Below, one piece after another: positions 1-2,724 of a stretch of DNA of 64,000 nt (the stretch's first letter is position 1; every line of letters starts with the position of its first letter). The DNA comes from Clostridia bacterium (GTDB taxonomy: Bacteria > Bacillota > Clostridia > CAKSNL01 > HGM11501). The stretch is from positions 1-64,000 of the forward strand of contig JAZQAZ010000018.1 of assembly GCA_045545475.1 (NCBI GenBank). The letters run 5' to 3'. Both the position numbers and the translations under genes were made by a program. The notes beneath the pieces were generated by a model. That model was not told where the DNA came from. It did not search any database and saw only the letters and a program-made list of their open reading frames with translations.

Positions 1-1676
1 CAACGCTTGTAAATTCTCTCTATGAAGACACTTCCGTACAGGTCGAAAGCTTTGTCACAAATCAGGACGGTGAATGTGTTGCTAAAGCATCGGCTGACGG
101 TGAAATTGCCTCACGTGAAAAAAACACACTCAAATACAGCTGCAAAGTCACTCATCCCCTTCTCTGGGACTGCGAAAGCCCCAATCTTTACAGCATAAAA
201 ACAGTTGTTATCAGAAACGGTGAAGAAGTTGACGAAAGTCACACTCGAATCGGCTTTCGAACAGTTGAAGTGTCTGTTGAAAAAGGGCTTCTCCTGAACG
301 GCAAAAAAACAATTATAAAGGGAGTCTGCTCTCATCAGGATTTCGGTCTTACAGGTCTTGCAGTACCCGACAATATTGCACGTTACAAAGTAAAGCTCAT
401 AAAGGAAATGGGCGCAAACGGCTACCGCACAAGCCACTATCAGCAGACAGAAAGCTATATGGATGCTTTTGACGAAATGGGTTTTCTTGTAATGGACGAG
501 GCAAGATGGTTCGAAAGCACAAATGAAGCTCTCATGCAGCTTGATAGTCTTGTAAAGCGTGACCGCAACAGACCAAGCGTTATTTTCTGGTCAACAGGCA
601 ACGAAGAACCGACCCAGGTAACAGAAACAGGCAAAAACATTCACAGAGCAATTTACGCCCATATAAGAAAACTTGATAAAACACGTATTATCATGTCCGC
701 ACAGGACAAAAAGCCGGAAAATTCAACAGTGTTTGAATACAGCGATATAATCGGCATAAACTACAATCTTGACTCATACGACAAGGTACACGAAAATCAT
801 CCCGATAAGGCTATAGTTGCCTCGGAATGCTGTGCCGTCGGAAGAACACGCGACTGGAATTTTGACTCAAATTCACTCGGACGGCTGCGTGATATTGACA
901 CAGACGCCAACGAATGGTTCCTCGGCAGAGAAAAAACATGGAAGTTCCTCATGTCAAGACCTTATGTTATCGGTGCGTATCAGTGGGCGGCAGTCGAACA
1001 CAGAGGAGAAGCCGTATGGCCGGCTCTTTGCTCAAAATCAGGTGCACTTGATTTGTTCCTGCAGAAGAAAGGCGCATTCTATCAGAATAAATCCCATTGG
1101 ACAAATGCACCTATGGCACACATAGTTCCTCATTGGAATTTTAGCGGTCTTGAAGGACAGGAAATCCCCGTAACAGTCTACACAAACTGCGATGAGCTTG
1201 AACTTTTCCTCAACGGAAAAAGCCTCGGCAGAAAGCAAATTGAAAAGTACGGACACGGTTTGTGGCTTGTGCCGTATGAAGCAGGCAAATTAGAGGTCAA
1301 TGGGTACATTGGCGGAAAAATATGTGTAACCGATGAAAGACAAACAACAGGAAAACCAGAAAAGCTCCGTCTTACACAGATTAACGAATTTGAATGTAAC
1401 GGAAAAGATATTGCCTTGTTTACCTGCGAATGTCTTGACAGCGAAGGAAGAGCTGTTCCCGATGCATCAGAGCTTGTACGCTTCTCTGTATCCTCCCCTG
1501 CCGTAATTATCGGAACCGGCTCTGACAACTGCGACCCTTTAAATGTGTCAAATCCCGAGCGCAGAATGTACATGGGCAAAATAACCGTTGCCGTAAAGCC
1601 TGCGAAAAATACAGGGTTTACACTCACCGCATACAGCGGAAACTGCAAAAGCGATATTTTAGTTGCAAAAGTATAG
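1..1676 (+). CDS. Glycoside hydrolase family 2 (beta-galactosidase/glucuronidase-like), 5'-truncated by window edge
   Basis: Frame open from nt 3 (..HPLLWDCESPNLY..RIGFRTV); GH2 motifs KGVCSHQD, YRTSHY, RDRNRPSVIFWSTGNEE (acid/base) and ASECC (nucleophile region). Confidence 0.92.
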   Translation, partial: TLVNSLYEDTSVQVESFVTNQDGECVAKASADGEIASREKNTLKYSCKVTHPLLWDCESPNLYSIKTVVIRNGEEVDESHTRIGFRTVEVSVEKGLLLNGKKTIIKGVCSHQDFGLTGLAVPDNIARYKVKLIKEMGANGYRTSHYQQTESYMDAFDEMGFLVMDEARWFESTNEALMQLDSLVKRDRNRPSVIFWSTGNEEPTQVTETGKNIHRAIYAHIRKLDKTRIIMSAQDKKPENSTVFEYSDIIGINYNLDSYDKVHENHPDKAIVASECCAVGRTRDWNFDSNSLGRLRDIDTDANEWFLGREKTWKFLMSRPYVIGAYQWAAVEHRGEAVWPALCSKSGALDLFLQKKGAFYQNKSHWTNAPMAHIVPHWNFSGLEGQEIPVTVYTNCDELELFLNGKSLGRKQIEKYGHGLWLVPYEAGKLEVNGYIGGKICVTDERQTTGKPEKLRLTQINEFECNGKDIALFTCECLDSEGRAVPDASELVRFSVSSPAVIIGTGSDNCDPLNVSNPERRMYMGKITVAVKPAKNTGFTLTAYSGNCKSDILVAKV

Positions 1677-1687
1677 ACCTTGTGTTA

Positions 1688-1716
1688 GAATAGATTTAAC
1701 AAAGTTAAATCTATTC
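1688..1716. repeat. Perfect 13-bp inverted repeat GAATAGATTTAAC-aaa-GTTAAATCTATTC
   Basis: Read directly; lies between the GH2 stop and the first AGCTAAATT unit; no U-tract follows. Confidence 0.85.
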
Positions 1717-1891
1717 AGCTAAATTCGCTTGGCAGCGAGCTAAATGTGCTGACGCACGCTAAATTACTTCGTAGCTAAATTGACCTGCGGTCAGCTATAA
1801 TGCGAATTTAATTTAGCTACTCCGAAGGAGTTATTTAGCTATGGAGCAAAGCGTAATAATTTAGCTTTGCAACTTGTTGCAAAATTTAGCT
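1717..1891. repeat. Structured array: 5 direct AGCTAAATT-type units then 4 inverted AATTTAGCT units, with short hairpin spacers
   Basis: Direct units at 1717, 1738, 1757/8, 1773 and 1793 (variant AGCTATAAT); inverted units at 1810, 1832, 1858 and 1883. Spacer hairpins: TCGCT-tggc-AGCGA, GTGC-tgac-GCAC, TAC-ttc-GTA, TGACC-tgc-GGTCA, ACTCC-gaa-GGAGT, TTTGCAA-cttg-TTGCAAA. Confidence 0.92.
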
Positions 1892-1917
1892 AAAAGAAAT
1901 TGATAGGATGTGAGTAT

Positions 1918-2286
1918 ATGGCAGAAAGCATAATGCTTGATAAAGCAAAAGATTTTGCAGTTGAAATTATAAATATGTGTAAAAATATCAAAGAAGCAAA
2001 AAGAGAAAGTGTTTTAACAAATCAGCTTATGCGTTCAGGTACATCAATTGGTGCAAATATTCACGAATCAAAATATGCTCACGGAACTGCTGATTTTATT
2101 TCAAAAATGCAAATATCTTTGAAAGAATGTTATGAGTCAGAGTATTGGCTGGAGCTTCTTAATAGAACAGGATATATTGATGATGAAAAATATAAAAAGA
2201 TATTAAATGATTGTGGACAAATTCGCAAAATGTTGATTTCATCAATAAATACAGTTAAAGAGAACTCTCAAAAAGGTGGTCTGTAA
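1918..2286 (+). CDS. Four helix bundle protein (TIGR02436 / 23S rRNA IVS-protein family, Avd-like fold)
   Basis: Signature QLMRSGTSIGANIHE...ADFISKMQISLKECYESEYWLELL; ATG at 1918 after AGGATG. Confidence 0.92.
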   Translation: MAESIMLDKAKDFAVEIINMCKNIKEAKRESVLTNQLMRSGTSIGANIHESKYAHGTADFISKMQISLKECYESEYWLELLNRTGYIDDEKYKKILNDCGQIRKMLISSINTVKENSQKGGL

Positions 2287-2609
2287 TGATAGGAAAAATA
2301 GTAAAAGTCATTGTTGATAGACCTAAAGGAAGTTTTCATCCCCAATATAAAGATATAGTTTATCCGCTTAATTATGGGTATGTTGATGGAGTCCTTGCAG
2401 GGGATGGAGAAGAACAAGACGTATATATTATGGGTATAGATTATCCTTTGGAAAAATTTGAAGGCGAGATTATTGCAATTATACATCGCATAAATGATAT
2501 AGAGGACAAATGGGTTGTAGCACCTAAAGGTAATAGATTTACTAAAGAAGAAATTATAGAAGCAACTGAATTTCAAGAAAAGTTTTTTAATATAGATGTT
2601 ATTGTTTAG
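2286..2609 (+). CDS. Small inorganic pyrophosphatase-family protein
   Basis: YPLNYGYVDG..AGDGEEQDVY..EDKWVV motifs; start overlaps upstream stop (TAATG). Confidence 0.8.
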   Translation: MIGKIVKVIVDRPKGSFHPQYKDIVYPLNYGYVDGVLAGDGEEQDVYIMGIDYPLEKFEGEIIAIIHRINDIEDKWVVAPKGNRFTKEEIIEATEFQEKFFNIDVIV

Positions 2610-2724
2610 TGGCATCTAAAACGTTCACTGATTCTAAAATAGATTTAGATTTAGAAAAATTGTGATAGCGTTTTCTGCCTGTATCTACAAAAAATTATAT
2701 TTATTAAAACGGAGCGAATATCCA

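Follow-up and report, generated by a model that had tools for sequence, protein, structure and literature searches.

A two-fold symmetric word-and-hairpin array upstream of a PF05635 gene in a Clostridia bacterium, and its counterparts beside homologous genes

The locus and its insertion-like unit

The present analysis concerns a stretch of 64,000 nt from a Clostridia bacterium (assembly GCA_045545475.1, contig JAZQAZ010000018.1, positions 1 to 64,000), hereafter called the window, in which an array of short repeated words and small hairpins stands directly upstream of a gene of the PF05635 family. The array and the gene lie within a low-GC unit, the features of which are collected in Table 1, and arrays of comparable build accompany almost all of the homologous genes that were sampled. 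Contigs of this genome are cited with the prefix C, sampled loci with L and other genomes with G.

Table 1. Features in and around the low-GC unit (positions of the window)
Feature	Position	Strand	Details
Promoter-like site	1663..1691	+	TTGCAA, 17 nt, TAGAAT preceded by TG (extended -10); consensus match only
Low-GC unit	1681..2660	+	extended -10, H0, array, PF05635 gene, diphosphatase-like gene, end motif, apparent stub of a next unit
Hairpin H0	1688..1716	.	13 bp, 3-nt loop, directly 5' of the first word; inverted-repeat search
Left half-array	1717..1801	+	words at 1717, 1738, 1758, 1773; variant at 1793
Centre, GCGAATTTA	1802..1810	+	exact complement of 1720-1728
Right half-array	1811..1891	+	inverted words at 1811, 1833, 1859, 1884
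PF05635 gene (23S rRNA intervening sequence protein / Avd-like)	1918..2286	+	122 aa, four-helix bundle; Pfam
Small inorganic-diphosphatase-like gene	2286..2609	+	107 aa; start overlaps the PF05635 stop
End motif, GGCATCTAAA	2611..2620	+	downstream end of the unit
AATAGATTTA	2638..2647	+	direct repeat of 1690-1699 (H0 5' arm)

The repeat-and-hairpin stretch is real and agrees almost to the base with the description given in the original prediction. Four GCTAAAT words (starting at 1718, 1739, 1758 and 1774) and one variant, GCTATAAT, at 1794 (1793 in Table 1), are followed within 1717-1891 by four inverted copies, ATTTAGC, starting at 1811, 1833, 1859 and 1884. Hairpins, with stems of 3-6 bp, make up six of the spacers; their loops are TGGC, TGAC, TTC and TGC in the left half and GAA and CTTG in the right. 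The perfect 13-bp hairpin on the 5' side (H0, arms 1688-1700 and 1704-1716) and the 26 nt between the end of the last word at 1891 and the ATG at 1918 were likewise recovered. The spacer 1841-1858 of the right half, earlier called degenerate, carries a GAGCAAAGCG-type motif, which is seen in right halves only and recurs across arrays with other words. The segment to which the centre is complementary, 1720-1728, comprises the tail of the first word and the 5' arm of the first spacer.

All seven exact 8-mers AGCTAAAT/ATTTAGCT of the window fall inside 1717-1891, in the order +++----; a total of seven per window is ordinary (reached in 18 of 100 shuffles), and it is the clustering that is unusual. 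The same 8-mer occurs 49 times in the 2.74-Mb genome, 15 of these occurrences being gathered in three clusters, namely the window, C41:100-267 and C41:51439-51459. When 1685-1917 was folded on both strands, as the original prediction had proposed, z values of -4.98 (+) and -7.23 (-) were recorded, and none of 200 shuffles folded as well on either strand.

The assignment of the gene to the 23S rRNA intervening sequence (IVS) family with an Avd-related fold is upheld by both the PF05635 profile and structure comparison. The Pfam match has an E value of 3.5e-29 and 101.6 bits, against a curated cut-off of 33.8. The AlphaFold model of the 122-aa protein (predicted local distance difference test score, pLDDT, 94.7) consists of four helices and resembles 2RLD (B. 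thetaiotaomicron BT_0352) at 50% identity and TM 0.90, and Avd (4DWL) at TM 0.77 and root-mean-square deviation 1.9 with a sequence identity of about 10%. The entries 2RLD and 2GSC hold five chains each, and 8UB7 (by its title) and related entries place Avd within an RNA-containing ribonucleoprotein. A Xanthomonas protein of the PF05635 family is a homopentamer, a ring of four-helix bundles, according to PMC4990558.

The suggestion that the array belongs to a small mobile unit is also sustained, in that the unit is insertion-like and multi-copy, with three copies in unrelated flanks. Positions 1681-1990 are 99% identical to C41:310-1, where the contig breaks inside the gene, and 1683-1779 (H0 and three words) are 93% identical to C41:51500-51405. 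The left border, 1681, is taken from the identity to these two copies; the region common to the copies begins at the TG of the extended -10 (TGnTAGAAT). The GC content is 31.2% in the unit, as against 44.5% in the upstream gene and 40.3% in the window. The right border is probably set by the motif at 2611 and the repeat at 2638. From the letters of the promoter-like site, transcription would start near 1698, within the 5' arm or the loop of H0.

The end motif GGCATCTAAA also follows cassettes or gene-less arrays at C47:57836, C9:1820(-), C3:988, C42:2475 and L019, and a GCATCTA(A) form of it is present in L025-L027 and at about 74000 of C20; L029 carries an end motif as well. It trails gene-less arrays by about 10 nt. 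Several loci have a -10-like box 17 nt after GCATCT, and elsewhere a tRNA-3'-end-like stretch and a terminator come after the motif. It is also present 3' of a GGDEF gene (C3) and of a creatininase-like gene (C42), neither of which belongs to PF05635. Together with the preceding TAAAAT, AATAGATTTA looks like the stub of a following unit, and tandem units, with a second hairpin and array after the end motif, are found in L025 and L026. In RNA-library contigs from other samples, 1895 is joined directly to 2610 and both genes are skipped, so that a gene-less form (array plus end motif) exists. Only this joined form was used, as the contigs carry no information on strand, ends or level and their uncovered parts are uninformative.

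Recurrence of the arrays with and without the gene

Sampling covered 24 loci in 14 genomes of the family, together with 80 loci in named Clostridia metagenome-assembled genomes (Oscillospiraceae, Acutalibacteraceae, Christensenellaceae and Lachnospiraceae). The 96 PF05635 loci with at least 200 nt upstream were searched with five word patterns written as regular expressions, and the remainder was inspected by eye. The original prediction had asked whether the architecture recurs upstream of homologues with different core words, and it does so in 94 of the 96 regions. The patterns recovered arrays in 75 (43 AGTnnTATT, 17 GCTAAAT, 13 TGAAAT, 1 CGATAT and 1 ATGATG); the other 21 comprised 4 further arrays, 4 with direct words only, 11 hairpins of tandem heptamers and 2 with nothing or a misplaced gene start. 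The three other PF05635 genes of this genome carry upstream arrays of the same build, on the words GTGAAAT (C47, C48) and ATGATG (C24). The most common form, with four direct and four inverted words, accounts for 40 of 74 distinct arrays. Arrays span 171 nt in the median, and the words are spaced irregularly, at 14-37 nt, with medians of 20 and 24.

When the word class was placed on a quick tree of 72 proteins, only 5 changes were needed (minimum 4; shuffled mean 28.9), a value reached by none of 200 shuffles; each protein clade therefore has its own word. The word-bearing clades span several host families. Among proteins of 92-97% identity the words are fixed, spacer sequences turn over, and whole word-plus-hairpin units are gained or lost. 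The residues that discriminate between classes concentrate in the α1-α2 loop (26-29), in the α3-α4 loop (82-89) and at 51-52; this clustering would be weak support for a protein that reads the words, being confounded by phylogeny.

A known RNA motif is encountered among these arrays. The consensus of Gut-1 in Rfam (RF01706) reads word-hairpin-word-hairpin-word-hairpin-word, that is, four words and three small variable hairpins. Left halves of TGAAAT-class arrays exceed its gathering score of 50 bits (74.9 for C48 and 66.3 for C47), right halves match it on the opposite strand (50.3 bits for C47, and 42.7), and 14 matches at E up to 0.01 were recorded in this genome, 9 of them over the cut-off. 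The window array gave no Gut-1 match in 1500-2800 or 1680-1920 even at E up to 10; its left half has the Gut-1 architecture, with words at 1717, 1738, 1758 and 1773 and hairpin spacers between them. An Rfam identity for the window itself was considered and set aside, as only chance-level matches were returned. The claim of an undescribed system thus holds only in part, as the TGAAAT half-arrays are already Gut-1; RF01706 does not detect the GCTAAAT array.

The main text of PMC2864571 (Weinberg et al. 2010) describes Gut-1 as a probable non-coding RNA that is restricted to human gut samples, and its authors rate it a certain RNA. The window system shares its build of word repeats between small variable hairpins, and paralogous arrays of this genome and its relatives score above its threshold; the window differs in its word, in the head-to-head inversion of two half-units, in the centre pairing and in the tie to PF05635. 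No paper linking PF05635 to word arrays or to Gut-1 was found in the literature searched, supplements being outside its reach. As far as searched, the association of PF05635 with the arrays is real, widespread and unpublished, one word class being already in Rfam.

The arrays are not confined to PF05635 genes. Of the 12 hits returned when this genome was scanned for the architecture, 9 proved to be true arrays, to which later finds were added; the scan also caught unrelated repeats, namely tandem units of roughly 47 nt (C12:23919-24184) and a collagen-like GXY-coding repeat (C20:201-459). Five gene-linked arrays stand against at least seven gene-less or partial ones (at the start of C31, on C4, C8 and C9, two on C20, C41:51405 and a fragment pile on C42), and most of the latter (TGAAAT, GCTAAAT) share their word with the array of a resident PF05635 gene. 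At C8 the last 13 nt of the open reading frame (ORF) remain and a relative carries the full gene at the same site, which shows that the gene was lost and the array kept. AGTnnTATT arrays occupy 7 loci in G001 and 4 in G008, as against 2 genes and 1 gene of the same class. A reversed-pattern control gave no hit in any of the 14 genomes. The pattern scan of metagenomes yielded 109 hits, most of them other repeats, among which 8 true GCTAAAT arrays were recognised by eye.

Among 120 genomes of the class, Gut-1 was detected in 24 (E up to 1e-4), PF05635 in 41 and both in 22. PF05635 is therefore present in 22 of the 24 Gut-1-positive genomes as compared to 19 of the 96 Gut-1-negative ones (odds ratio 45, Fisher 7e-11, related genomes not being independent). 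The original prediction would have been contradicted by arrays spread without association to the gene family. As arrays often occur without the gene, it is contradicted in part, but the tie to PF05635 at the level of whole genomes is strong.

Folding, strand and genomic setting

Selection on the folded spacers, which had been put forward from the window alone, is evident from the unique spacers of all arrays, since at least four Watson-Crick pairs are formed by 90 of 124 in left halves and 120 of 149 in right halves, against shuffle means of 5.3 and 18.6, respectively. The two halves mirror each other in loop type (on the + strand, left TTC, TAC, TTGC and TTAC; right GAA, GTAA, GCAA, GCA and GTA), and 126 of 150 triloops are closed by C-G. 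In 44 of 70 arrays the first unit, comprising the word tail and the 5' arm of the first spacer, is matched to the centre by 8 or more exactly complementary nt; for later words such complementarity was recorded in 2/70, 0/61 and 0/9. As nine different spacer starts are involved, this pairing co-varies.

The nested ladder of direct and inverted words, as drawn in the original prediction, gained no support, for no register-specific covariation was detected in 22 distinct 4+4 arrays. The R4:R'2 register was strongest and R2:R'3 gave none, so that enrichment is not confined to the nested register, and the two variable word positions co-vary between halves array-wide only. Kissing of left and right loops within one array was not convincing (33 observed, 27.3 expected; reached by 47 of 1000 permutations).

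Two further array types were seen upstream of PF05635 genes. In one of them, tandem 7-mers that lack hairpin spacers make up an imperfect hairpin, which follows a tRNA terminator directly (L011, L018, L076, L078, L085, L090, L091, L096 and L098-L100). By eye, the middle of this hairpin repeats the complement of the terminator 5' arm together with the tRNA CCA and A-run, which parallels the first-unit/centre pairing of the word-and-hairpin arrays. In L039, L042, L065 and L068, direct words with hairpin spacers occur without an inverted half, and the array reaches the ribosome-binding site.

The indications of strand are divided. In right halves, internal G.T pairs number 11 against 2 A.C pairs, and in left halves 0 against 3 (Fisher 0.018); this signal reverses once two word letters per side are counted, because the word ends form T.G pairs. 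GNA/GNRA-type loops and internal G.T pairs would favour the outward-reading strand of each half, and the orientation of the Rfam model and the T.G pairs at the hairpin bases would favour the inward-reading one. For the left half, the inward, gene-sense strand is also indicated by the four genes that have direct words only.

A hairpin in the position of H0 precedes the other arrays inspected too; the arrays lie directly behind it, and it is often the terminator of a tRNA operon, with tmRNA taking this place in one locus. Beyond some cassettes the 3' end of the tRNA or tmRNA recurs as short repeats, and arrays pile up behind tRNA genes and truncate one another. In L037 (934-1280 and 2744), the array with its cassette lies behind a tmRNA gene (152.7 bits), and the final 12 nt of the tmRNA recur about 1.46 kb downstream, like the borders of ssrA-integrated elements. 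At C47:57210-57875, a second copy of the tRNA-Cys 3' end, with the first part of the terminator, stands beyond the cassette, immediately past the end motif. The pile-up at C42:2650-3020, behind a duplicated tRNA 3' end, contains a heptamer-word hairpin, half a TGAAAT array, TTCAT heptamers and a 6-codon stub of a PF05635 gene. A tRNA/terminator, an array and a PF05635 gene also follow one another on two unverified and unannotated 'Bacteriophage sp.' scaffolds from fecal viromes, L235 (MT835815, 360-660) and L236 (MT835590, 330-570), which may be phage-borne or bacterial DNA in the virome.

The position of the promoter differs between classes, hence the array is not always part of the gene's mRNA. 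A promoter-like site stands just before the hairpin in 7 of 17 GCTAAAT-class arrays, the window included. In the AGTnnTATT class, which is the largest, 41 promoter-like hits lie between array and gene among 43 arrays, and the -35 of the gene's promoter follows immediately upon the last word. There are also 32 leftward promoter-like hits at the array centres of these 43 arrays (hits being counted, not arrays), which may be AT-rich words mimicking a -10. A conserved two-hairpin stretch ending in GATGCTGGTTCT comes right after the stop of PF05635 genes of this class (L070, L081, L083, L084, L086, L102 and L104) and may be a 3' element of their cassettes.

The unit is neighboured by a GH2 glycosidase gene and a metallo-beta-lactamase-fold gene. 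No reverse transcriptase (RT), cas or transposase gene was found among the ORFs inspected up to about 6.9 kb, five of which were Pfam-scanned. Neither an empty site nor a target duplication was found among genus relatives sharing the upstream gene; as these are only 66-72% identical over most of the matches, no orthologous junction is comparable. The diphosphatase-like gene matches PF00719 at E 2.3e-4, under the curated cut-off, and by blastn 'inorganic diphosphatase' genes in Listeria and Clostridium plasmid records. The genes 3' of PF05635 in 22 loci belong to unrelated families (e.g. methyltransferases, HAD hydrolases, an ion channel and NUDIX) and resemble ordinary neighbours rather than a constant partner. 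A single RT was found in the genome (C10:141725-142681; L105 2226-3182; 318 aa, RVT_1); it adjoins a 398-aa ORF without Pfam match, and its size suggests a retron or defence-type RT; no link to PF05635 was seen, with no such gene among the five ORFs scanned around it.

Interpretation and meaning

The reading preferred here, tentatively and in the knowledge that it may well prove wrong, is that the PF05635 ring protein binds the words, as class-specific sites, on a folded single strand, and that both belong to a selfish and portable cassette. Positions 1681-2660 of the window would be one copy of this cassette, and its head (1688-1891) a two-fold symmetric element made of two inverted Gut-1-like half-arrays. 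The cassette's own, putatively ring-shaped and word-binding, protein would read the words sequence-specifically, and the variable hairpins would act as fold-out spacers that keep the words apart and exposed. The folded strand would, in the window copy, most simply be an RNA leader of roughly 220 nt, transcribed from the unit's own extended -10 promoter. Protein and array would form a pair comparable to RAYT (REP-associated tyrosine transposase) with REP (repetitive extragenic palindrome), or to a transposon with its miniature inverted-repeat transposable elements (MITEs); gene-bearing copies would supply the protein, and gene-less arrays would survive and increase in number in the presence of any protein of that family. 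Word binding, the choice of RNA rather than single-stranded DNA and a role in regulation or spread are what we infer from these patterns. The protein-array reading is favoured because the words are constant, the spacers fold out, the position is fixed, the words follow the protein clades and the two partners co-occur.

Several observations weigh against it. The class-dependent position of the promoter makes the array a leader in some cassettes and leaves it upstream of the promoter in others, and physical linkage by itself would lead one to expect words and proteins to vary together. The gene-less array C20:73841-73990 uses a word for which no resident PF05635 gene was found. Three AGTnnTATT arrays were present in G002 without a PF05635 match, though this genome is only 75% complete, and the Gut-1-positive genomes G045 (96% complete) and G068 (92%) also lack such a match. 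Furthermore, none of the five evaluable GCTAAAT arrays from metagenomes, i.e. those with at least 700 nt of room downstream, has the gene within 0.7-1.4 kb downstream.

One alternative is a structured RNA that works without PF05635, either a non-coding RNA or leader of the Gut-1 type, or a palindrome folded in read-through transcripts into a compact body of stems and junctions as a processing, stabilising or insulating signal, comparable to the IVS stems cut by RNase III, which would allow the cassette to sit harmlessly between host genes. The rating of Gut-1 as a certain RNA in PMC2864571 and the passing of its gathering score by TGAAAT half-arrays are consistent with such an RNA, as is the excision by RNase III of ORF-bearing IVS of the same gene family, described in PMC4990558. 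The compensatory change and G.T pairs in stems, the arrays that stay intact without the gene and the RNA-library contigs covering array sequence, in which DNA carry-over is possible, point in the same direction. Many arrays, however, lie between a terminator and the gene's promoter, where little transcription is expected, the mirroring of loops between the halves is left unexplained by a single transcript, and the strong genome-level tie to PF05635 receives no explanation either. Helices of 7-9 bp broken by junctions are, moreover, poor substrates of RNase III. A protein-free RNA is regarded as rather unlikely.

The abundance of gene-less copies (at least seven against five in this genome, with a like excess in G001 and G008), the pile-ups and mutual truncation, the differences between relatives by whole word-plus-hairpin units and the deletion of the gene with retention of the array at one shared site are what a functionless selfish DNA repeat would leave, of the REP, BIME (bacterial interspersed mosaic element) or MITE kind, spread by host recombination or by slippage at identical words. 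The PF05635 gene would then be a passenger or neighbour, both settling in safe sites behind terminators and tRNA genes. Neutrality, however, would not keep hairpin spacers, strand-specific loops and first-unit/centre pairing across classes, nor does it account for the constancy of words within a protein clade or for the 94 of 96 genes with an array in fixed position and orientation; such a repeat is deemed unlikely.

The arrays could also constitute a single-stranded-DNA device, its hairpins being extruded by supercoiling or formed in the template of the lagging strand. Through the mirror design one half would be active whichever way the fork moves, and a host or element enzyme would use the structure for recombination, priming or insertion. 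Loops of the GAA, GTA, GCA and GNRA type are known as the most stable mini-hairpin loops in DNA, and they are the commonest on the outward strand, along with the predominant C-G closure of the triloops (126/150). The two-fold symmetry that does not depend on promoter position, and the adjacency of arrays to terminator hairpins and tRNA/tmRNA 3' ends with short repeats of those ends downstream, would suit such a device too. Against this, the arrays examined have no linked nuclease, recombinase or HUH enzyme and the sole RT lies elsewhere, stems of 3-6 bp are short for extrusion, and no empty site or target duplication was found; the device is regarded as distinctly improbable. Very improbable is an operator or iteron array in duplex DNA, at which the words would bind a regulator of the adjacent promoter (the PF05635 protein or a host factor), in the manner of the iterons and centromere-like repeats of plasmids. 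In its favour, the last word adjoins the -35 in the largest class, with its 41 promoter-like hits between array and gene, both word orientations occur, as for dimeric DNA binders, and H0 of the window overlaps the -10 and the predicted start in operator-like fashion. Hairpin spacers, G.T pairs and loop bias, however, are left unexplained by binding to a duplex, arrays persist far from any such gene, and the irregular spacing of 14-37 nt does not place the words on one face of the helix.

Known systems resemble the window system in part. REP/BIME with RAYT are short structured extragenic repeats in inverted pairs, with class-specific protein pairing and with gene-linked and orphan copies. The many dispersed copies, the inverted pairs and the gene-linked and orphan forms of the present arrays are alike; the protein is, however, an all-helical four-helix bundle rather than an HUH/Y1 (IS200-like) transposase, with no catalytic activity evident, and the unit consists of a word plus variable hairpins, where REP is one conserved palindrome. 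TRAP on the trp leader of Bacillus is a ring oligomer bound to repeated short words of a single-stranded RNA leader, with spacers of 2-3 nt. It offers an analogy of working only, as its fold is unrelated, the window spacers are hairpins and no attenuator is evident. Avd of the diversity-generating retroelements has a similar fold (TM 0.77) and acts within an RNA-protein complex, but no RT adjoins the PF05635 gene, the sole RT of the genome being on contig C10.

The ORF-bearing IVS of 23S rRNA in Leptospira and Coxiella (S23p ORF), as presented in PMC4990558, share the PF05635 family, the character of a low-GC selfish insert and complementary repeat arms; their insertion sites are helix 25 or 45. 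The window unit, in contrast, lies outside an rRNA gene (no rRNA match in 1500-2800), both of its word sets stand upstream of the gene instead of enclosing it, with only the 10-nt H0-arm repeat downstream, and its arms are word arrays with hairpin spacers rather than a plain 28-bp stem. A wider proposal, which is speculative and rather unlikely, is that PF05635 rings and arrays form a new, enzyme-free class of mobile or self-propagating element uniting Gut-1, the ORF-bearing rRNA IVS and the heptamer-repeat hairpins found near genes of this family in other phyla, in which the rings would be single-strand word binders and the word a programmable, co-evolving address.

PF05635 is a very large family with solved structures whose function is not known, Gut-1 has been an orphan motif since 2010, and the intervening sequences of rRNA are still unexplained selfish inserts; the present data tie the three together and turn the question into a testable one. 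As the 7-9-nt word of each clade is displayed four plus four times on a defined scaffold, binding, swaps of specificity and effects on expression are directly assayable. The arrays also mark insertion hot spots behind tRNA genes and can break contigs, as in this assembly. If the protein does not read the word, the arrays are still structured repeats of a family that is widespread among Clostridia of gut and rumen; if it does, they would represent a compact and naturally re-addressable system of protein-nucleic acid recognition.

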